Source: an uncultured Eubacteriales bacterium (GTDB lineage Bacteria; Bacillota; Clostridia; Christensenellales; Aristaeellaceae). From it: a stretch of DNA of 64,000 nt. The notes beneath the pieces are model-generated. The model made no database searches. It was not told where the DNA came from and worked only from the letters and a program-made list of their open reading frames with translations. The stretch is from contig CADAHU010000007.1 in the NCBI GenBank assembly GCA_902787835.1, forward strand, positions 19,441 through 83,440. Reading direction: 5' to 3'. Below are positions 5,078 to 57,394 of this stretch, in pieces (within the stretch, counting starts at the first letter, position 1; every line of letters starts with the position of its first letter). A program made the translations under genes and the position numbers.

Positions 5078-5100
5078 GATTAAAAAGGGAGTATTTGACC

Positions 5101-6507
5101 ATGTCCACACCGCAAATCCGCGATTTTAAGGGCAAGCGCGTACATATGATCGGCATCGGCGGCAGCAGCATGAGCGGCCTGGCCGGGATGCTGGTGCAGC
5201 AGGGCTATCACGTTACGGGCTCGGACAAGAGCCACAGCCATGCCGTGGAGCGGCTGGAGGCCCAGGGCGTTGCCATCGCCATCGGCCATGACGAAAAAAA
5301 CGTGCAGGGCGCCGACGTGCTGGTGTATTCCGCGGCCATCAAGCCCAATAACCCGGAGCGCGCCTGGGCCTTTGCCCACGGGATCCCGCAGATCGAGCGG
5401 GCGGAGCTGCTGGGCCAGGTGATGGAGGGGCACAGGGACGCGGTCTGCGTCAGCGGCACCCACGGCAAGACCACCACCACCTCCATGCTGTCCCAGATGC
5501 TGATGGACTGCGGTCTGGACCCCGCCGTGCACATCGGCGGTCGGCTGGACGCCCTGGGCGGCAGCACGCGCATCGGCAGCGAGCGGGTGTTTGTGGCCGA
5601 GGCCTGCGAGTACGCCGGAAGCTTTCTGCACATGCACCCCACCATCGCGGTGGTGCTGAACATCGAGGAGGACCATCTGGATTATTACGGCGATATTCAG
5701 CACATTGAGGAAGCGTTCTACAATTTCTGCTCCCTTCTGCCGGAGGACGGCCTGGTGGTGGGCTGGGGTGATGATCCCCGGGTGCAGAAGCTGCTCCGCC
5801 GTCTGGATCGCCGGCATGAGACCTTCGGCTTTACGGCGGACAGCGACTGGTATCCCGAGAACCTGGTAATGGGCGATCTGGGCCGGGCGCAGTTTGACGT
5901 AATGTATCGCGGAGAAAAGCGCTGCCACGCGGCGCTCAGCGTGCCCGGACGCATTCAGGTGGGCAACGCCCTGGCGGCGCTGGCCTGCGCTCACGCCCTG
6001 GGCGCGGATATGGAAAAGGCCGCCGATTCCCTGAATCATTTTATCGGCGCGCACCGGCGGTTTGAGCATACCGGGGATATCGACGGCGTGCACATGTACC
6101 ACGATTACGGCCATAACCCCACGGAGATGCGCAACGCCATCGCCATCGCCAAGGAGCAGCACGCCAATCATGTATGGGCGGTGATGCAGCCCCACACCTA
6201 CAGCCGGGTCAAAACGCTGTTTGACAGCTACCTGACCTGCACGGAGGCGGCGGATTACACGCTGGTCACCGATATCTGCGCCGCCCGGGAGGTTGACCCC
6301 GGGGACATCAACAGCCAGATGCTGGTGGACGGCATGCGCGCCCATGGCGTGGACGCCGTGCTGACGCCCTCCTTTGATGACACCGAGGCTTACCTGCGCG
6401 CCCATTGGCAGCCCGGCGATCTGGTGCTCACCATGGGCTGCGGCGATATCAACCTGCTGAACGAGCAGATGCAGCAGCACGGGGACACGCCCAAAGCGCA
6501 GGCGTAA
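5101..6507 (+). CDS. murC: UDP-N-acetylmuramate--L-alanine ligase
   Basis: GIGGSSMSGLA nucleotide-binding fold and GTHGKTTTTSML P-loop. ATG 5101 sits 9 nt after AGGGAG; the track start at 5095 is a TTG too close to the RBS. Confidence 0.95.
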   Translation: MSTPQIRDFKGKRVHMIGIGGSSMSGLAGMLVQQGYHVTGSDKSHSHAVERLEAQGVAIAIGHDEKNVQGADVLVYSAAIKPNNPERAWAFAHGIPQIERAELLGQVMEGHRDAVCVSGTHGKTTTTSMLSQMLMDCGLDPAVHIGGRLDALGGSTRIGSERVFVAEACEYAGSFLHMHPTIAVVLNIEEDHLDYYGDIQHIEEAFYNFCSLLPEDGLVVGWGDDPRVQKLLRRLDRRHETFGFTADSDWYPENLVMGDLGRAQFDVMYRGEKRCHAALSVPGRIQVGNALAALACAHALGADMEKAADSLNHFIGAHRRFEHTGDIDGVHMYHDYGHNPTEMRNAIAIAKEQHANHVWAVMQPHTYSRVKTLFDSYLTCTEAADYTLVTDICAAREVDPGDINSQMLVDGMRAHGVDAVLTPSFDDTEAYLRAHWQPGDLVLTMGCGDINLLNEQMQQHGDTPKAQA

Positions 6508-6514
6508 CAGCATT

Positions 6515-6912
6515 TGCAAACCGGGATTTGTGGGGAAGGGACGAACGGGAGCGTTCCTTCTTGAAGCCCAAGAAGGAACCGAAGAAAGCTGCGTTGTCGC
6601 CGTAAATGCTGCTGGCTGCACGCCAACTGGCTTTAACGCCCATCCCCGTTCCCTGGCAGCACGGCTCCGCCGTGCACGCGGTGCGCAAAGCGCACCGCTG
6701 AACAAAGAGAGAAATCCGGAAAAATGAGCTCGTTCATTTTTCCGGATTTCTCTCTTTGTTCTTTTGCCAGGGAACTCGCTTGGCGACCGCAACCAAACTG
6801 GCGGAAACAAGTTTGTTCGTCGATTCAAGTTGGTTCGCCCGCTGAGGTCCAGGAGGCGAAGTCTCCTGGCGCAGAGCTCGAGGCCGCGGAGGCCTCGAAC
6901 GTTTTCCTGTCA
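6515..6912 (+). repeat. hairpin-mosaic intergenic repeat, copy A (core 6541-6840)
   Basis: Alignable with 13722-14196 and, reverse-complemented, with 32861-33228. Contains hairpins at 6553-6579, 6659-6675, 6680-6696, 6700-6761 (perfect 28 bp), 6849-6869 and 6879-6897, plus a long-range helix 6648-6658/6765-6775. Confidence 0.9.
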
Positions 6913-6932
6913 CTACAATGCAGCACGCCGCG

Positions 6933-7679
6933 TCATCCCTGCCGTCCCAGTATGCGCCGCAGGAAATCCTGGGTGCGGGGCTGCTGGGGATTGCTGAGCA
7001 GCTGGGCGGGCGGCCCCTGCTCCAGAATGACGCCATCGCACATGTACACCACGCGGGTGCTCACGTCCCGGGCAAAGGCCATCTCATGGGTGACAACCAG
7101 CATGGTCATGCCGCTTTCCGCCAGGCTGCGCATAACGGAGAGCACCTCGCCCACCATCTCAGGATCCAGGGCGCTGGTGGGCTCATCAAAGAGCAGCACC
7201 TCCGGATCCATGGCCATGGCGCGGGCAATGGCCACGCGCTGCTTCTGACCGCCGGAGATCTGGCGGGGCTTGGCGTTTACGTAGGGCGCCATACCCACCT
7301 TTTCCAGGTATTGCATGGCGTGGGCCTTGGCTTCCTCCCGGCTGCGCTTGAGTACCTTGATCTGCCCCACCATGCAGTTGTCCAGCACGGTCATATTGTT
7401 GAACAGATTAAAGGACTGGAACACCATGCCCACCCGGGCGCGATACTTGGCCGCCTTGGTGCCGGGAGCGAGCACGTTCTTACCATTATAAATGATCTCG
7501 CCTGCGTTGGGCGTCTCCAGCAGATTGATGCAGCGCAGCAGGGTGGATTTGCCGGAGCCGGACGCGCCGATGATGCTGATCACATCGCCCTTGTCCACGG
7601 TAAAATCGATATCCCGCAGCACGGCGTTTGTGCCAAAGGATTTGGAAAGGTGGTTGATCTGCAGAATATGCTCCGCCAT
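6933..7679 (-). CDS. amino-acid ABC transporter ATP-binding protein (GlnQ-like)
   Basis: Walker [10 protein letters not shown], signature [14 protein letters not shown], Walker [15 protein letters not shown] 7679 follows GGAAAGGA and lies next to the permease stop; the maximal ORF extends to 7700. Confidence 0.93.
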
Positions 7680-9500: not shown

Positions 9501-9733
9501 AAGAAAAGCGGTGAATCGGCCTGCGCCATTCACCGCCTGCATCCTTTTAGATCGGCTGATTTTGAATAGCGCTCCATGGCCTTGTACCATGACAGTCAAG
9601 CGGATGTTTTCCCCTTGCCCAACGCGATTGCCCTGCCGTTGCTTTCGCATTTCGGCGGCTTCCCCTTTCGCGTGCGATCCTCGCCCTGGCAGGGGCTCCC
9701 GCGCGCTACTCTTGTCGGCCGCGCCTCTATTCC
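9501..9733 (-). promoter_or_regulatory. lysine riboswitch (L-box) with terminator, leader of the ABC importer operon
   Basis: The minus strand reads GGAAUAGAGGCGC..CAAGAGUA..GAAAGGGGAAGCCGCCGAA..GACUGUCA..CUAUUC, matching the conserved L-box blocks of B. subtilis lysC as I recall them. Aptamer is about 9564-9733. Terminator GCGGTGAAT/ATTCACCGC lies at 9508-9536 with a U-tract, just before the RBS. Confidence 0.85.
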
Positions 9734-9761
9734 ATCCAGGTCCTGCCTGAATGTTGAGGTG

Positions 9762-12243: not shown

Positions 12244-13035
12244 ATGCAATTTGGCATGCCTTTTCTGCTGGAAAACAGCAGCATAGAAGACGCGGCCCGG
12301 CTGGGCGCGGAGCTGAAGCTGGATTTTGTGGAGCTGAACATGAGCTTTCCGCTGTGCGGCCTGGACAATATGAGCGCGGCGGAGCTGACTGACCTGCAGG
12401 AGAAATACGGCGTTTATTTTACCTTCCACCTGCACGAGGAAATGGCCCCCTGCACCTTCTCCAAATACGTACGGGAGGCCTGGCTGCGGGAGGCCCGGGA
12501 GGCCATCACCCTGGCCCGGCTGGCGCATATGCCCGCCGTCAATCTGCATTGGCTGCGGGGCATTTATGTAACGCTGCCCGACCATGTGGATCATCTGTTC
12601 AGCCGCTATCGGAAGGCGTACGAGCAGAACGTGCTCGCCTTCCGTTCCATCTGTGAGGAGGCCAGCCAGGGCCAGGTGCGGGTCTGCGTGGAGAACACCG
12701 AGCGTCCCTGGGAGCCCTTCCAGACCGATACCATCGAGCTGCTGCTGGAATCTGATGCCTTCGGCCTGACGCTGGACGTGGGGCATGAAAAGGTGGCGGG
12801 CTACAAGGACGCCTGGTTTTACGAAAAGCATCCCGGGAGGCTGAACCATATGCACCTGCACGACGCCAGGCCCAACCAATGTCATATGCCCCTGGGCGCG
12901 GGCGAATTGGATATCGCGTCGCTGGTGCACAGGGCGGACACAGCGAACGCCCGGGCGGTGATCGAGATCAAAACGGAGGCTGCCCTGCGCAGCAGCGTGC
13001 AGTATCTGCGGGAAAGAGGGCTGTACCATGCTTGA
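12244..13035 (+). CDS. sugar phosphate isomerase/epimerase (xylose-isomerase-like TIM barrel)
   Basis: Family pattern: ...FVELNM..., HLHEE, VCVEN, LDVGHE, HMHLHD. ATG 12244 is 8 nt after GGAGG. An extended -10 TGGTATAAT lies at 12208-12216. Confidence 0.75.
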   Translation: MQFGMPFLLENSSIEDAARLGAELKLDFVELNMSFPLCGLDNMSAAELTDLQEKYGVYFTFHLHEEMAPCTFSKYVREAWLREAREAITLARLAHMPAVNLHWLRGIYVTLPDHVDHLFSRYRKAYEQNVLAFRSICEEASQGQVRVCVENTERPWEPFQTDTIELLLESDAFGLTLDVGHEKVAGYKDAWFYEKHPGRLNHMHLHDARPNQCHMPLGAGELDIASLVHRADTANARAVIEIKTEAALRSSVQYLRERGLYHA

Positions 13036-13705
13036 TATCCGCGGGCGGCTGCTGGCCCTGGAGGATCCGGCCAACGCTGATCTTCAGTTTAAATTGGCCC
13101 CGGGGCTGCGGCGGGAGGACATGCTGGGCATCCGCTTTCCCGCGCTGCGGCAGCTGGCAAAGGAGATCCAAAAATCCCCGGAGTCTGCGGCTTTTCTGGC
13201 CGATCTGCCCCATCGATACTTTGATGAGAACAACCTGCACGCCGTGCTGATCAGCGGTATCCGGGATCTGGACGCCTGCGTGGCTGCGCTGGACGCCTTT
13301 CTGCCCCACGTGGATAACTGGTGTACCTGCGATACGCTGATCCCCACCTGCTTCAAAAAGCACACCGGCGAAGCGCTGCCGCACATCCGCCGGTGGATGG
13401 GAAGCGCCCATACCTATACCTGCCGGTTTGGCATTGGCGCGCTGATGCGGTTTTATCTGGACGGGGATTTTGACCCGGAATACCTCTCCTGGGTGGCCGA
13501 GATCCGCTCGGAGGAATACTACATCAACATGATGATTGCCTGGTATTTTGCCACCGCCCTGGCCAAGCAGTATGACGCCGCCCTGCCCCTGATCCAATCC
13601 CGCGCCCTGGCCTCCTGGACGCACAACAAGGCCATCCAGAAGGCTATCGAAAGCTTCCGCGTAACCCCGGAACACAAGGAAGCGCTGCGAAAGCTGAAGG
13701 TATAA
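13028..13705 (+). CDS. DNA alkylation repair protein (AlkD-like HEAT-repeat family)
   Basis: 225 aa. ...FPALRQLAKEI..., NWCTCD, YYINMMIAWYFATAL and SWTHNKAIQKAIES are typical of the family. It overlaps the upstream gene by 8 nt. Confidence 0.8.
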   Translation: MLDIRGRLLALEDPANADLQFKLAPGLRREDMLGIRFPALRQLAKEIQKSPESAAFLADLPHRYFDENNLHAVLISGIRDLDACVAALDAFLPHVDNWCTCDTLIPTCFKKHTGEALPHIRRWMGSAHTYTCRFGIGALMRFYLDGDFDPEYLSWVAEIRSEEYYINMMIAWYFATALAKQYDAALPLIQSRALASWTHNKAIQKAIESFRVTPEHKEALRKLKV

Positions 13706-13721
13706 GCTTTTCCTGTCGAGC

Positions 13722-14196
13722 TGCAAATTGGGATTTGACGGGGAGAGGGGTACGAACGGGGGCGTTCCTTCTTGGAGCCCAAGAAGGAACCGAAGAAGGC
13801 TGCGTTTGTCGCCGTAAATGCTGCGGGCTTTTCCGCCAACAGGCTTTAACGCCTGCCACCGTTCCCGGGCAGCACGGCTACGCCGTGCGCGCGGTGCGCA
13901 AAGCACACCGCTGAACAAAGAGAAAATCCCTGAAAAATGAACAAGCTCATTTTTCAGGGATTTTCCCTTTGTTCTTTTGCCCGGGAACTCGCTTGGCGAC
14001 TTAACCAAGCTAGCGGAAACGAGTTTGTTTTCCAATTCAAGTAGTTCGCCCCGTTGGGAGTCCAGAGGGCCCGCAGCGTCCGAAAAATGATCCAGTGGAT
14101 CATTTTTAGCGAGGGCGGGCCGGAAGGCCCCGGACCCGAAGGTCCTTTGGCGCAGAGCTCGAGGCCGCGGAGGCCTCGCCAAATCTCAATTTGCGC
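13722..14196 (+). repeat. hairpin-mosaic intergenic repeat, copy B (core 13752-14051) with terminal inverted repeats
   Basis: Same core as copy A. TIRs are GCAAATTGGGATTTG (13723-13737) and, reverse-complemented, GCAAATTGAGATTTG (14180-14194). Extra hairpins lie at 14083-14107, 14117-14130 and 14132-14145. Confidence 0.9.
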
Positions 14197-14212
14197 AATT
14201 GTTCGTCCCGTC

Positions 14213-15178
14213 TCAATACCCGATTTCCTTCAGAATCCGATCCAGCAGCCGCGCGGTCATCAGGGAGAATTCCCGGGTAACGCGCGGTTTCTCCTCGCCC
14301 AGGATGCAGCGGCCCAGCTGCTCCACCTCCAGGGTGTAATTATCCCGGGCAAACACCGTTTTGACCTGGGTTTCGCCGTCGTGGGTCACCGTATAGGCGA
14401 TCTCGCCGGACTGGTTGAACCGCACGTCGGATACGATGCTTCCCCGGGTGCCGTGCACGCGGAAGCGATCCACCCGCGCATTGGGCAGCGCCATGCCGCA
14501 GTCCAGGCTGGCGAACGCGCCGTTGGCATAGGTCAGCACCGCGGAGGTGAACAAATCCACGCCGCGGTCGGAGAACTGCGCCGACGCGCGCACGTCCTGC
14601 GGCTCCCCCATCATCCACAGCGTCATGCTGGCGGCATAGCAGCCCAGATCGTACAGCGCGCCGCCATATTTTTCCTTATACATGCGGATATCGGTATCGG
14701 GCGTGCGTCCGCCGATGAAGGCCGACTCAAAATAGCAGATATCGCCCACAGCGCCGGCGTCCAGCTCCTGCTTGACCGCATCCATAAAGGGGTTATGCAG
14801 GTAGGCAAAGGCCTCCATCAGGTGCACGCCGCAGCGGTCCGCGGCCTCAACCATCCGCCGCGCCTCAGCCTCGCTGCCCGCCAGCGGCTTTTCGCACAGC
14901 ACATGCTTGCCGGCCTCCATGGCGCGGATGCTCCAGGGCGCGTGCAGGTCATTGGGCAGCGGGATATACACCGCCTCCACCTGGGGATCGTTCAGCAGCT
15001 CCTCATAGCTGCCGTAGGCCTTCTCAAAGCCGAAATCCTGCTGGAATTGCCTTGCCTTCTCCAAACTGCGTCCCGCAATGGCGTACAGCTGGCAGTTTTC
15101 GGCCTTCTGCATGCCGGGAATGGTGGCCCAGCGCGCGATGCCCGCCGTGCCCAATACGCCCCAACGAATCTTTCTCAT
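14213..15178 (-). CDS. Gfo/Idh/MocA family oxidoreductase
   Basis: MRKIRWGVLGTAGIA Rossmann N-terminus and the EKPLA motif. ATG 15178 follows GGGAGGAGGA. Confidence 0.9.
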   Translation of the reverse strand: MRKIRWGVLGTAGIARWATIPGMQKAENCQLYAIAGRSLEKARQFQQDFGFEKAYGSYEELLNDPQVEAVYIPLPNDLHAPWSIRAMEAGKHVLCEKPLAGSEAEARRMVEAADRCGVHLMEAFAYLHNPFMDAVKQELDAGAVGDICYFESAFIGGRTPDTDIRMYKEKYGGALYDLGCYAASMTLWMMGEPQDVRASAQFSDRGVDLFTSAVLTYANGAFASLDCGMALPNARVDRFRVHGTRGSIVSDVRFNQSGEIAYTVTHDGETQVKTVFARDNYTLEVEQLGRCILGEEKPRVTREFSLMTARLLDRILKEIGY

Positions 15179-24432: not shown

Positions 24433-24463
24433 CAGACCGGCAGCTTGCTGCCGGTCTGTTTTT
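24433..24463 (+). terminator. intrinsic terminator of fba
   Basis: CAGACCGGCAGC / GCTGCCGGTCTG stem followed by TTTTT. Confidence 0.8.
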
Positions 24464-24542: not shown

Positions 24543-24725
24543 AACAAAGGTAGAAATGCCTGCCGATAAGCAGGGCCCTGACTGCTGATCAGCGGCAAAT
24601 CTCCGTCACTTGGACCTGAAAGCAAAGGAGGTGCTGATCATTTACAACCGCAGCGCGGCGCGAAGCCCGCGCCGCAAAAAGCATTAAACCCCTCAGAAAA
24701 CGGTTTTCTGAGGGGTTGCTTTTTT
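24543..24725 (+). ncRNA. candidate small RNA of unknown family (promoter-to-terminator unit)
   Basis: Bounded by the promoter above and the terminator at 24689-24725. No ORF with a canonical start lies inside. Internal GC hairpin at 24655-24675 and palindrome at 24584-24593. Confidence 0.4.
24689..24725. terminator. bidirectional intrinsic terminator (candidate sRNA on + strand, GH112 gene on - strand)
   Basis: 13-bp stem CCCCTCAGAAAAC / GTTTTCTGAGGGG. T-run on the plus side (TTGCTTTTTT) and A-run on the other side (GCAAAAAGCATTAAA). Confidence 0.75.
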
Positions 24726-30800: not shown

Positions 30801-32857
30801 TGCGTTTGCTGGAGCTTTTGAACAATCCGCCCCGGGAGTATACCCCCATCCCCTTCTGGTTTCTGAACGGCGATCTGCGCCGGGAGGAGATCAAACGGCA
30901 GCTGCGGGATTTTTGCGATCACGGCGTTTACGGCGTGGTGCTCCATCCCCGCATCGGCCTGCCGCCGCGCATCGGCTATCTTTCCGAAAGCTTTTTCGGC
31001 TATCTGCGCGTGGCCATCGAGACAGCGGCGGAGCTGGATATGCGCGTGGTGCTCTATGACGAGGGCATGTACCCCTCCGGCTCGGCCTCCGGGCTGGTGG
31101 TGCGGGATCACCCCGAGCTGGCCAGCCGCGGGCTCTGCCATGTGGAAACGCCCGCGCCGGGGGATACGGTGCTGTGCCCCGTGGCGGGCGGATACCTGGT
31201 GGAGCGGTTCAGCGGCGGCAGGCTGCGCGGCCTGCACTACGGCGAGGATGACGGCGAGCCCAACCAGCCCCTGAGCGCCGATATTCTGAATCCCGAGGCG
31301 GTAAACCGGTTTATCCAACTGACCCACGAGGCCTATTACCAGCATTTTGCGCCGCACTTTGGCAAAACCATTATTGGCTTTTTCACCGACGAGCCCAGCA
31401 TACTGGGGCGCAACGTGCGGGATATGCAGCCCTGGACCCGGGGCTTTGCCGATATGTTCTGCCAGGCGGGCGGGAACCCGGCGGGGCTTGCCGGGCTGTT
31501 TGACGGTACGGAGAACGCCGATACCGCCCTCTACCGCCGGCTGATGCTGGAGCGGGAGAGCGAGGTCTATTACGCCAGTCTGTCCCGCTGGTGCCAGGCG
31601 CACGGCATCGCCCTGATGGGGCATCCCCACCAGAGCGATGATATCGAGTTTGAGCGGCATTTCCATGTACCGGGCCAGGATCTGGTGTTCCGCTGGGTCT
31701 CCCCCGAGACCGGCGGCACCGTGGGCATGGACAGCACCATGGGCAAATGCAGCGCCGATATGGCGCGGCATATGGGCGCGCGGCGCAATTCCAACGAGTG
31801 CTTCGGTGCCTGCAACCGCGGCGGCAATCCCTGGCATTTTACCGGGGAGGATATGAAGTGGTTCATCGACTGGCTGGCAGTGCGGGGCGTCAATCTGTTT
31901 ATCCCCCACGCCTTCTATTACAGCCTGACCGGCAAGCGCAGCGCCGAGCGGCCGCCGGACGTGGGCCCCGGCAGCATCTGGTGGCCCCATTATCAGCTGT
32001 GGGCAGGCTACATGACCCGGCTTTCCTGCCTGATGGCGGAGACTGAATACCAGGCCGATATCGCTCTGCTGTGCCGCAACCGGGAGCTGCATGCCGAAGC
32101 TGCCGCGCCGCTTTTTGAAGGCCAGCGCGCCTTTGAATACCTGCCGGAGAGCCTGTGGGCCGACTGCAGGGAGGAAAACGGACGTCTGATCTGCGGCAGC
32201 CGCAGCTATGGCGCGGTGGTCGGCGCGGAGACGCTGTTCCCCACGGTATCCCATGATCCGCAAACCGTCGCGCCGGACTGTCTCTGCGATCCGGCCCAGC
32301 CCGATCTGCGCATCGCCGCCCTGAAATACCAGGGCCAGCCCTGCTGGCTGCTGGTCAACGAGGGCGAAAACGATCTGCAGGCCCAAATCACGCTGCCCGT
32401 TCACGAGCCGCTGGGGCAATATGATCTCTGGCAGAACACCACCTGCGCCTTGCCCGGCCGAAATACGGAGCAGGGCACGCAGTTTCGCCTCTCCCTGCCC
32501 CGGCGGGGAAGCCTGCTGGTCTTTGCCGCCGGGGAGGCGCTGCCCCAGCCGGAAAGCCTGCCGGCGCTGGAGAATATCCCCTTCGCCCTGATCGGCCAGG
32601 ATCCCAAGGCCTGCACCAAAACCTATGCCGCCACGCTGCCCGCCTATGATACCGATGTGATGGTCTCCGTAAACGCGGAGGAGATGGCAGAGCTCTTTGT
32701 CAACGGCCAGCCCTGCGGCGTCGCCTTCTGGGCGCCCCAGCGCTTCCGCATCCCCCATGCCCTCACCGGCGGCCGGGAAGCGGAGCTGCGCCTGGTTATC
32801 ACCGGCAGCCTGGCCAACCGCTACGGGAACCAGCCCGTTCCCTATGGGCTGATCTGA
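30800..32857 (+). CDS. putative glycoside hydrolase (uncharacterised family)
   Basis: 685 aa. Its start overlaps the upstream stop (TAATG). The N-terminal motif TPIPFWFLNGDL...EEIKRQL and a C-terminal beta-sandwich-like region resemble GH106/GH2-sugar-binding-type enzymes. Confidence 0.55.
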   Translation: MRLLELLNNPPREYTPIPFWFLNGDLRREEIKRQLRDFCDHGVYGVVLHPRIGLPPRIGYLSESFFGYLRVAIETAAELDMRVVLYDEGMYPSGSASGLVVRDHPELASRGLCHVETPAPGDTVLCPVAGGYLVERFSGGRLRGLHYGEDDGEPNQPLSADILNPEAVNRFIQLTHEAYYQHFAPHFGKTIIGFFTDEPSILGRNVRDMQPWTRGFADMFCQAGGNPAGLAGLFDGTENADTALYRRLMLERESEVYYASLSRWCQAHGIALMGHPHQSDDIEFERHFHVPGQDLVFRWVSPETGGTVGMDSTMGKCSADMARHMGARRNSNECFGACNRGGNPWHFTGEDMKWFIDWLAVRGVNLFIPHAFYYSLTGKRSAERPPDVGPGSIWWPHYQLWAGYMTRLSCLMAETEYQADIALLCRNRELHAEAAAPLFEGQRAFEYLPESLWADCREENGRLICGSRSYGAVVGAETLFPTVSHDPQTVAPDCLCDPAQPDLRIAALKYQGQPCWLLVNEGENDLQAQITLPVHEPLGQYDLWQNTTCALPGRNTEQGTQFRLSLPRRGSLLVFAAGEALPQPESLPALENIPFALIGQDPKACTKTYAATLPAYDTDVMVSVNAEEMAELFVNGQPCGVAFWAPQRFRIPHALTGGREAELRLVITGSLANRYGNQPVPYGLI

Positions 32858-32860
32858 ACC

Positions 32861-33228
32861 GAAGGATGGGATACGTTACTTTCTTCCAGAAGAAAGTAAC
32901 AAAGAAGCAGCCGGCGAACCGACTTGAATCGGCAAGCAGACTTGCTTCCGCCAGTTTGGTTACGGTCGCCAAGCAAGTTCCCGGACAACAGGAACACAGA
33001 CAAAAACCGTCAAAAGCAAGCTCGCTTGTTTTTGACGGTTTTTGTCTGTGTTCAGCGGTGCGCTTCGCGCACCGCGCGGCCAGCGAAGCTGGCCTTGTAC
33101 GGGAACGGCGGCAGGCGTAAAACCCGGTTGGCGGAAAAGCCCGCAGCATTTACGGCAACAAACGCAGCCCTCTTCGGTTCCTTCTCGGGCTCCGAGAAGG
33201 AACGCCCCCGTCCGTTTTCTCCTCTCGA
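32861..33228 (-). repeat. hairpin-mosaic intergenic repeat, copy C (inverted; core 32911-33216)
   Basis: Its reverse complement aligns with the cores of copies A and B. It fills the whole gap between the two stop codons. An additional 12-bp hairpin lies at 32875-32900. Confidence 0.9.
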
Positions 33229-34062
33229 TTACTCATCCCAGGCGTTGCTCAGATCGGCAAACTGCTGCAGATCCAGCGCCTCGCCGCGGATATTCTCCGG
33301 CAGACCGGCCCGGGCGAGCCAATCCGCCGCCTGATCGCGATCCAGATGGAAGGCGGAAATCAGGTTGTTGCACAGCGTTTTGCGGCGCAGGGCAAACGCG
33401 GCGTTGACCACCTTGAAAAACCGCGCCTCATCCGCCACCGATACGGCGGGCCGTTCCCGCCAGGGCATGCACAGGAAGGCGGAATCCACCTTGGGCGGCG
33501 GCGTAAAGCAGGCCGCCTCCACGATGCGGGCCAGCCTGGGCTGGGTATAATACTGGGCGCGCACCGCCAGGGGGCCGTATTCCGGGGTGGAAGGCGCTGC
33601 CAGCACCCGCTGGGCGGCCTCCTTCTGTACCATCAGATTGATGCTGCGGATGGGCAGATTGCCGCGCAGCAGCAGCGTCATCAGATCGGTGGTCAGGTAA
33701 TAGGGAATATTGGCCACCACATGAAAGGGCGATTTGCCCGCCATGATCTCCGGGATATTGACCCGCAGGATATCGCCCTGGATCAGGGTGAAGTTCTCCG
33801 CCCGCTCCATCACCACCCGCAGGATGGGGATCAGATCTCGGTCCAGCTCCACCGCCGTGACCGTTTTGCACCGGGATGCCAGCAGCCGCGTCATATCGCC
33901 GCCGCCGGGGCCCACCTCCAGGATATGATCCTCCGGCCCCACGCCGCTGTCATCGATCAGCGTTTCCAGCAGCGCCGCGTTGGTCAAAAAATTCTGCCCC
34001 AGGCTGTGCTTGGCCTGAATACCGCCCGGTCCGGAACGTCCCTTTTTATAATTTGGCTTCAC
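33229..34062 (-). CDS. rsmA: 16S rRNA (adenine1518/1519-N6)-dimethyltransferase
   Basis: KHSLGQNFLTN... and the SAM motif ILEVGPGGGDMT. Confidence 0.95.
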   Translation of the reverse strand: MKPNYKKGRSGPGGIQAKHSLGQNFLTNAALLETLIDDSGVGPEDHILEVGPGGGDMTRLLASRCKTVTAVELDRDLIPILRVVMERAENFTLIQGDILRVNIPEIMAGKSPFHVVANIPYYLTTDLMTLLLRGNLPIRSINLMVQKEAAQRVLAAPSTPEYGPLAVRAQYYTQPRLARIVEAACFTPPPKVDSAFLCMPWRERPAVSVADEARFFKVVNAAFALRRKTLCNNLISAFHLDRDQAADWLARAGLPENIRGEALDLQQFADLSNAWDE

Positions 34063-57129: not shown

Positions 57130-57135
57130 CCGCTC

Positions 57136-57394
57136 AGTTGCGATGACTGGGAAACGTGCTGCGATGCAGCGCCTTGCAGAGAGCCCCGGCAGGTGGAAGC
57201 GGGGCAGGCGAACGCGCAGGAATTCCTCCCGGAAGCAGCGGCCTGAAGGATGCGTCTGGTAGGGTCCGCCGGGTTCCCTCCGTTAGCGGGGATGGGCAAT
57301 GATGGTTGCCCTGTAAGGCTTTCCCAGGGAAGCAAAATTGAGGTGGTACCGCGGTTTTTATCCGCCCTCTGCAAGGCAGGGGGCGTTTTTGTTT
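57136..57394 (+). promoter_or_regulatory. T-box leader (tRNA-sensing riboswitch) with terminator
   Basis: Stem I base UGCGAUGA...GCA, AG bulge AGAGAG, distal loop GCAGGUGGAAG. T-box sequence AAAUUGAGGUGGUACCGCGG at 57335-57354. Terminator CGCCCTCTG/CAGGGGGCG at 57363-57385 plus a T-run. Confidence 0.88.

Follow-up and report, generated by a model that had tools for sequence, protein, structure and literature searches.

The 62-base palindrome studied here is the central hairpin, H5, of an undescribed MITE-like repeat of about 420 bp, which is intergenic and non-coding and belongs to uncultured ruminant-gut Clostridia; its copies A, B and C lie in the 64-kb stretch of DNA that was analysed (hereafter the window). 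The preliminary description missed this context of the palindrome, and H5 proves to be the core of a MITE-like unit bounded by terminal repeats (TIRs). H5 is probably an inherited hairpin of this unit, with arms that are kept paired jointly by selection on both strands and by copying of one arm from the other. Between convergent genes, selection would act for a hairpin that forms whichever strand is read, and intrastrand template switching or flipping of the palindrome would carry a change over to the opposite arm at a single stroke, with the copying of arms occasionally inverting the loop. Recombinational swaps of H5 types between copies would add to the apparent rewriting of the arms.

H5 of copy A (6700-6761, plus strand), located by an inverted-repeat scan and a DNA fold, consists of two 28-nt arms paired at 28 of 28 positions around a 6-nt loop, has a GC content of 39% and is directly followed by TTTTG. 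H5 of copy B (13913-13974, plus strand; inverted-repeat scan) forms 27 of 28 pairs with a single A·C mismatch, and H5 of copy C (32992-33053, minus strand; inverted-repeat scan, clamp scan and DNA fold) forms 29 of 30 pairs with a 2-nt loop and one A·C on the element strand. The coordinates and arm sequences previously given for these palindromes are exact, as are the pairing values of 28/28, 27/28 and about 29/30. An independent inverted-repeat scan of the 64-kb window placed the three H5 hairpins at the top, as the longest inverted repeats present, namely 32992-33053 (30 nt, 97%), 6700-6761 (28 nt, 100%) and 13913-13974 (28 nt, 96%), and the clamp pattern GAACANAG...CTNTGTTC occurs three times in the window versus zero times in 100 shuffles. 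The folding energies predicted for the DNA hairpins are -30.8, -24.9 and -29.2 kcal/mol (z-scores: -12, -9 and -10). A and B differ in H5 by four mirrored changes and a fifth one, located in the 3' arm only, which gives the A·C mismatch of B, and not by three mirrored changes and a fourth, as first counted. The interior of C, described as unrelated, is in fact recognizable, with the 5' arms being 68% (A-C) and 75% (B-C) identical in ungapped comparison, against 79% for the rest of the element. Nor is the outer clamp the only conserved part, as was supposed, since the A-runs and motifs including GGGATTTTCCC and AAGCGAGCTT are common even to a sister family of the repeat.

The full copies are 405-426 nt long, with a GC content of 56-57%, and are bounded by TIRs of 19-26 bp (CAAATTGGGATTTGRCGGGG...). 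In L036a, L036b, L034a, L034b, L040, L042 and B the 5' TIR reads CAAATTGGGATTTGRCGGGGAGGGG, with its complement at the 3' end. The 5' TIR is followed by H1, a mostly unpaired stretch, a closing stem of 11-12 bp which encloses H3 (7 bp, triloop), H4 (9 bp, triloop) and H5 (28-30 bp), three further hairpins and the 3' TIR. Copy A, delimited by nhmmer against the full-length copies and by alignment, spans 6517-6911 on the plus strand (about 395 nt) and fills the spacer between the murC stop at 6507 and the stop of a convergent ABC-ATPase gene at 6933. It has lost the 3' TIR, and its 5' TIR (6517-6540, plus strand), reading CAAACCGGGATTTGTGGGGAAGGG, is degenerate, with four mismatches to the TIR consensus in the alignment. 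H1 (6553-6579, plus strand; 11 bp, 5-nt loop) is 100% paired in 12 copies, with 7 of its 11 pairs changed on both sides. The four-way-junction module (6648-6775, plus strand), recognized from folds and covariation, is built of the stem 6648-6658/6765-6775 around H3, H4 and H5. H3 (6659-6675, plus strand; 7 bp, 3-nt loop) and H4 (6678-6698, plus strand; 9 bp, 3-nt loop) were both defined by alignment and covariation, which is seen within as well as between families, and the loop of H4 is flipped in L037 and within the second family (family 2). The copy alignment thus bears out the compensation noted earlier for H1 and H3. Two hairpins of the 3' domain, found in folds and in the alignment, lie at 6849-6869 and 6877-6898 on the plus strand.

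Copy B (13724-14193, plus strand, 470 nt) has an intact 5' TIR at 13724-13750 and a remnant of the 3' TIR at 14177-14193, and its neighbours are an AlkD-like gene with the stop at 13705 and a convergent gene with the stop at 14213. It contains a nested insert of about 66 nt (14072-14137, plus strand), which consists of the hairpin AAAAATGATCCAGTGGATCATTTTT plus GGGCCGGAAGGCCC and falls outside the family consensus in the alignments. The same module was detected inside the TIR elements L041 and L066, and this recurrence inside other elements suggests that it is a second, smaller mobile or modular unit. Copy C (32860-33226, minus strand, about 367 nt) is placed in the reverse orientation, has lost both TIRs and abuts the stop codons of both convergent genes, at 32857 and 33229. 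An antisense frame is free of stops in all three copies (5080-6828, minus; 12968-14182, minus; 32924-33334, plus) and is frameshifted from one copy to another, so the element has no coding capacity, as is the case for MITEs. Gene callers derive spurious proteins from this frame, namely P0001-P0008, with lengths of 116-178 aa and without any Pfam domain.

In total, 13 distinct full or near-full copies were collected, comprising the three in the window and ten from related assemblies, besides six contig-end fragments. An exact-pattern scan of species-representative genomes gave no matches to a 23-base anchor taken from the 5' domain, and the same anchor cut to 20 bases found the six contig-end fragments, all lacking H5, in the JGI metagenomes. 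The ten further copies were reached by comparing the translation of the antisense frame with a protein database, which returned eight spurious ORFs and thereby their contigs. Copies are hard to collect because short-read assemblies break in the repeat, and the sample of 13 copies, plus eight of the sister family, comes mostly from short metagenome contigs. The ODAI01 contigs ending inside the element are L005, L010, L012, L017, L019 and L031; the end of L012 coincides with the exact start of H5, and L010 carries a truncated copy consisting of the 5' domain only, followed by an ordinary terminator.

The 13 copies contain 11 H5 haplotypes, most of which can be assigned to three classes: class I with B, L036a, L036b, L034b and L040, and A as a variant, class II with L035 and L042, and class III with C, L034a, L037 and L039, leaving L041 alone outside the classes. 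In fixed register they give 346 Watson-Crick, one G:U, seven A·C and seven other cells, most of the last stemming from shifts of register in the two copies that diverge most, as well as three gapped cells; Watson-Crick pairs make up about 95-97% of the H5 cells, with the MAFFT register affecting a few cells in L037, L039 and L041. Alignment of 12 copies shows changes on both sides in 16 of the 28 H5 pairs, with 97% of the cells paired. For the six helices taken together, 97.1% of the cells are paired compared to 88.5% in column shuffles and 39-52% with slid partners, and 27 pairs are compensated against 13.9 expected in the same 12 copies. The compensation by Watson-Crick pairs only, which was the central claim about H5, is therefore real and holds for all helices of the element, with G:U occupying just 12 of 871 cells. 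Neither of the two patterns named beforehand as speaking against the claim, frequent unpaired positions in the interior or a few fixed sequence classes without compensation of their own, was observed in the window family: such positions are rare, and each class contains mirrored changes.

The arms do change together, as implied by the earlier statement that the palindrome is rewritten in each copy, but this wording is overstated, since the H5 arms are on average 72% identical compared to 79-80% for the unpaired regions and 76% for H1. The interior is thus only modestly more diverse than its flanks while pairing stays at about 97%, and judging by the sequences, H5 was inherited from a common ancestor and has diverged at a rate just slightly above that of the remaining element. 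Hypermutation of H5 was considered and rejected, as the H5 of locus B is identical in two strains. At this locus, an 18-nt indel, CGAACGTTCCCCATTCAC, in the 3' TIR of copy B is present in L001 (11150-11167) and absent from the window at about 14176, the rest being identical. The idea of a guide RNA with the H5 interior matching the flanking target DNA was also rejected, the longest shared words being 6-8 nt, which equals chance.

The class of H5 is uncoupled from the similarity of the backbone: L035 and L040 are 93% identical in the backbone versus 64% in H5, and L036b and L040 are 77% identical in the backbone versus 96% in H5, which argues for exchange of H5 types between copies. In L035 (1-584), the 3' end and the adjoining flank are those of copy A and are joined to another 5' part and flank, the 5' part having a class II H5 and a variant H1, so that L035 arose either by recombination between copies or through chimeric assembly. 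Such mosaicism could be taken to mean that there is no ongoing compensation at all and that the H5 variants are a few fixed subfamily blocks reshuffled by recombination, a reading which agrees with the three main classes and their uncoupling from the backbone, with the identity of H5 between strains at locus B and with the resemblance of L035 to a recombinant of copy A and another copy. It is nevertheless highly improbable, as 11 haplotypes among 13 copies are too many for a few fixed blocks and mirrored changes are also found within classes: there is one between L034b and L036a, five between A and class I, and several among C, L034a, L037 and L039. Unmirrored single transitions are found in B, C, L034a, L039 and L040, and since these mismatches sit at a different position in each copy, mutation must be continuing. 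Furthermore, uncorrected arms would be predicted to mismatch at about 20% of positions at the divergence of the element, compared to about 3% observed.

Pairing could be held at the level of one RNA strand or, as in the preferred reading of both-strand selection and arm copying, on both strands or in the DNA. Over the six helices of the 12 copies, 12 G:U and 15 A·C cells were counted (p=0.70), together about 3% of cells, and as G:U is not favoured over A·C, this symmetric spectrum of mismatches carries no sign of selection on one RNA strand. In H5 alone, seven A·C stand against one G:U on the element strand (p=0.07), a skew which is at most a weak hint of RNA read from the opposite strand. It is conceivable that the element is a strand-specific gene for a structured non-coding RNA, with H5 under ordinary compensatory selection at the RNA level. 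This seems unlikely, despite the fact that seven of the eight transition mismatches in H5 would be G:U on a minus-strand RNA, that the fold z-scores of the element range from -9 to -13 and that the four-way junction is kept between families of very different sequence. Against it stand the G:U count over all the helices, the equally good predicted folding of the two strands (-172 versus -175 kcal/mol) and the occurrence of TIRs, truncation, nested inserts and reshuffled modules, traits that belong to repeats and not to genes. Moreover, no Rfam 15 family was found on the element at either gathering or permissive thresholds, and no promoter-like site was found in copy A.

Generic miRNA-hairpin matches of the element, at about half the threshold, and a 29-bit P4 match in L091, which was not reproduced in other copies, were discarded. 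The Rfam threshold was passed in the window only by a lysine riboswitch (9559-9737, minus strand, 105 bits), located upstream of the ABC-transporter operon which converges on copy A, and by a T-box leader (57134-57372, plus strand, 100 bits) elsewhere.

The loops provide a further indication of the level at which the arms are matched. The apex of copy A, ATGAGCTCGTTCAT, is the reverse complement of the apex of copy B, ATGAACAAGCTCAT, at 13 of 14 positions, and the loops themselves, GCTCGT in A and ACAAGC in B, are reverse complements at five of six. Likewise, the H4 loop is TTT in L037 and AAA or GAA elsewhere, and the sister family shows a similar contrast, TTC (one copy) versus GAA (three copies). 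Because loops are sometimes reverse-complemented, a DNA-level event is indicated, be it a template switch or recombinational flipping; recombination that flips a hairpin, through its own arms or through copies in opposite orientation, would leave the same picture as template switching. The suspicion voiced in the preliminary description, that one arm is copied from the other, is thus strengthened in the form of arm copying or hairpin flipping in DNA. The footprints of template switching set out by Mönttinen and Löytynoja (2022, PMC8794818) are compensation at several bases, perfect stems and complete inversion of loops, each produced by a single event, and all three patterns predicted there are seen in the element. 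That study dealt with rRNA and miRNA genes and called its evidence for the maintenance of short stems circumstantial, whereas the substrate here is a repeated intergenic palindrome, for which template switching is a likely mechanism. At the same time, the long-range closing stem co-varies, which suggests that real selection for structure also acts, and its covariation between families is easier to obtain by selection than by local template switching. Overall, the evidence favours a constraint that acts on the palindrome as DNA or on the RNAs of both strands, as in a bidirectional hairpin of the terminator type, and speaks against one on a single RNA strand.

The sister family includes eight elements from other MAGs, namely L051, L081, L088, L089, L091, L047 and two in L082, which have the TIRs and the whole architecture in common with the window family. 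The central modules of the two families align column for column, and the closing stem, H3 and H4 differ in sequence between them and are yet paired, with 15 of 28 pairs compensated and 97.4% of the cells paired. The sister H5 is homologous to that of the window, both containing GGGATTTTCCC and the apex AAGCGAGCTT, which points to an old and structurally conserved hairpin. It has a higher G+C content, no T tail and two conserved 1-nt bulges. A perfect palindrome is accordingly a property of the window family and not of the superfamily, and these bulges also mean that arm copying does not always perfect the hairpin.

Such conservation of position in two families with common TIRs is also what would be expected if H5 were a DNA hairpin or cruciform serving the mobility of the element, for example as a site where a transposase acting in trans binds or processes single-stranded or extruded DNA. 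The pairing by Watson-Crick pairs only, the high predicted stability of H5 as DNA and the presence of GGGATTT both in the TIR and in the H5 arms of class I and family 2 are in line with this. Despite that, we regard such a role as very unlikely, as copies without one or both TIRs, which are presumably immobile, keep H5 perfect: A and C, having lost TIRs, retain pairing of 28/28 and 29/30, so that the maintenance of H5 is independent of competence for transposition. In addition, class III has not conserved the interior, GGGATTT included, many elements bounded by these TIRs carry entirely different cargo and no H5, and no transposase-like ORF was found inward of 12 singleton TIRs, with housekeeping ORFs only. 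A more speculative reading, to which we likewise give very little weight, is that the four-way-junction module, which is compensated completely in at least two element families of different uncultured Clostridia, is a structured nucleic acid which the element itself needs, its hairpins being kept perfect by a dedicated palindrome-copying process; the module could then be a cis-acting RNA or single-stranded DNA structure, possibly of a non-canonical mobility system without target duplications.

As for the both-strand selection assumed in the preferred reading, the genomic setting suggests where it might come from. Both flanks are known for seven copies, and six of these have convergent neighbouring genes (p=0.0013, with 25% expected); A, B and C are found 3-20 nt from the neighbouring stop codons, often filling the whole spacer, in which H5 is the sole T-tailed hairpin. 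The GC content of H5 is 36-42% in a 63% G+C genome, and in its layout the 5' arm is rich in A, the G+C core is short and the 3' arm is rich in U and runs into TTTTG; being a palindrome, it reads alike on both strands. A terminator scan, the calls of which are consensus matches only, flagged both strands of H5 in copies A and B and the plus strand only in C. With 28-30 bp, the stem exceeds the typical terminator stem length of about 5-15 bp and is about twice as long as the ordinary terminators of this genome, which have 11-14 bp in the window (24433-24458, 24687-24717). A role of H5 as a bidirectional terminator or insulator is favoured on the basis of this layout and setting. Termination cannot be the conserved role of the hairpin, since the sister H5 is richer in G+C, bulged and devoid of a T tail.

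The closest known counterpart is the pneumococcal SPRITE, described in 2011 (PMC3049150), which is also a small interspersed repeat with an unusually long duplex core followed by a U-rich tract. SPRITE has an 18-bp duplex and is enriched near the 3' ends of genes, with co-option by the host as a terminator having been proposed, and target duplication was not established there either (PMC3049150). It differs in being shorter than 200 bp and AT-rich throughout, with a single hairpin and only AAAA/TTTT termini, compared to about 420 bp, TIRs of 19-26 bp, a multi-hairpin four-way junction and a stem of 28-30 bp in the element. If H5 indeed terminates convergent transcription, it would be another selfish repeat co-opted as a terminator.

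The element resembles BOX, RUP, Correia and other prokaryotic MITEs in being shorter than 500 bp, non-coding, intergenic and multi-copy with TIRs, as well as in the very stable stem-loops predicted in transcripts and in a modular or mosaic composition, with units inserting into one another (PMC10969869). Its size below about 500 bp, lack of coding capacity, TIRs within the range of about 4-30 bp and many dispersed copies are those of a MITE, and the TIRs and copy number are what suggests that it is mobile. MITEs are typically AT-rich, with detectable target duplications and a cognate IS, whereas the element has 56-57% GC and neither of the latter was found, and its internal architecture is conserved with full compensation across families. 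The element ends read Y|AAATT...AATTT|R in about 21 copies, and no direct repeat was detected at 21 element ends; a palindromic target duplication of AATT or AAATTT would be indistinguishable from the TIR, as it would be hidden within the inverted repeat. A scan of viral contigs for the TIR and a BLASTN search of the element against plasmids and phages gave no match. Imperfect palindromes in which the structure and short outer core sites are conserved and the interior is variable are also known as the attC sites of integrons, which act as a single folded strand that requires extrahelical bases, carry RYYYAAC/GTTRRRY cores and are located in cassette arrays beside an integrase. This identification was rejected, as H5 reads CGCTGAACA...TGTTCTTTT and is perfectly paired between ordinary convergent genes, with neither the cores nor the extrahelical bases, and the cassette array and integrase are absent as well. 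The element is an undescribed family of a known kind, working in the manner of SPRITE and BOX, with hairpins that evolve as the template-switch model describes, and its less ordinary feature is a four-way-junction core that is maintained in different families through complete compensation by Watson-Crick pairs. With dozens of diverged copies in which a 28-30-bp palindrome and smaller hairpins show covariation by Watson-Crick pairs only and exact loop flips, it is a compact natural test bed for weighing template switching against selection in the maintenance of hairpins.

The TIR sequence was not found in a literature search, and the repeat family appears to be undescribed and confined to uncultured ruminant or gut Clostridia MAGs. 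A TIR scan of species-representative genomes gave 49 loci, about 39 of which belong to such MAGs, including RGIG, RUG, red-deer Oscillospiraceae and Christensenellaceae, and Vescimonas, and the remaining ones fit the approximately nine chance matches expected. In these roughly 39 loci, one and the same pair of TIRs surrounds numerous unrelated cargos of 100-550 bp, which points to a MITE superfamily mobilized in trans. L062, L077, L078 and L083 are TIR elements of about 190-220 bp with a different cargo on these TIRs and subterminal tandem repeats of the AATTAGGAATGAGGAATT type.

Homologues of MurC and of the AlkD-like protein were used to look for empty sites, and no clean one was found. In relatives, the murC and AlkD-like genes are followed by spacers of 37-39 nt without the element; these are not clean empty sites, because the downstream gene differs too. 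The intervals compared were 6507-6933 and 13705-14213 of the window against 5398-5438 of L092 and 3681-3719 of L098, and a different convergent gene is present in the relatives at those loci. The repeats may mark breakpoints of rearrangements. Recognizing the repeat should be of help in annotation, as it breaks short-read assemblies, attracts spurious gene calls and coincides with synteny breakpoints. The gene order shared with the relatives, transketolase-murC in one case and AP endonuclease-AlkD-like gene in the other, ends exactly at the elements A and B.
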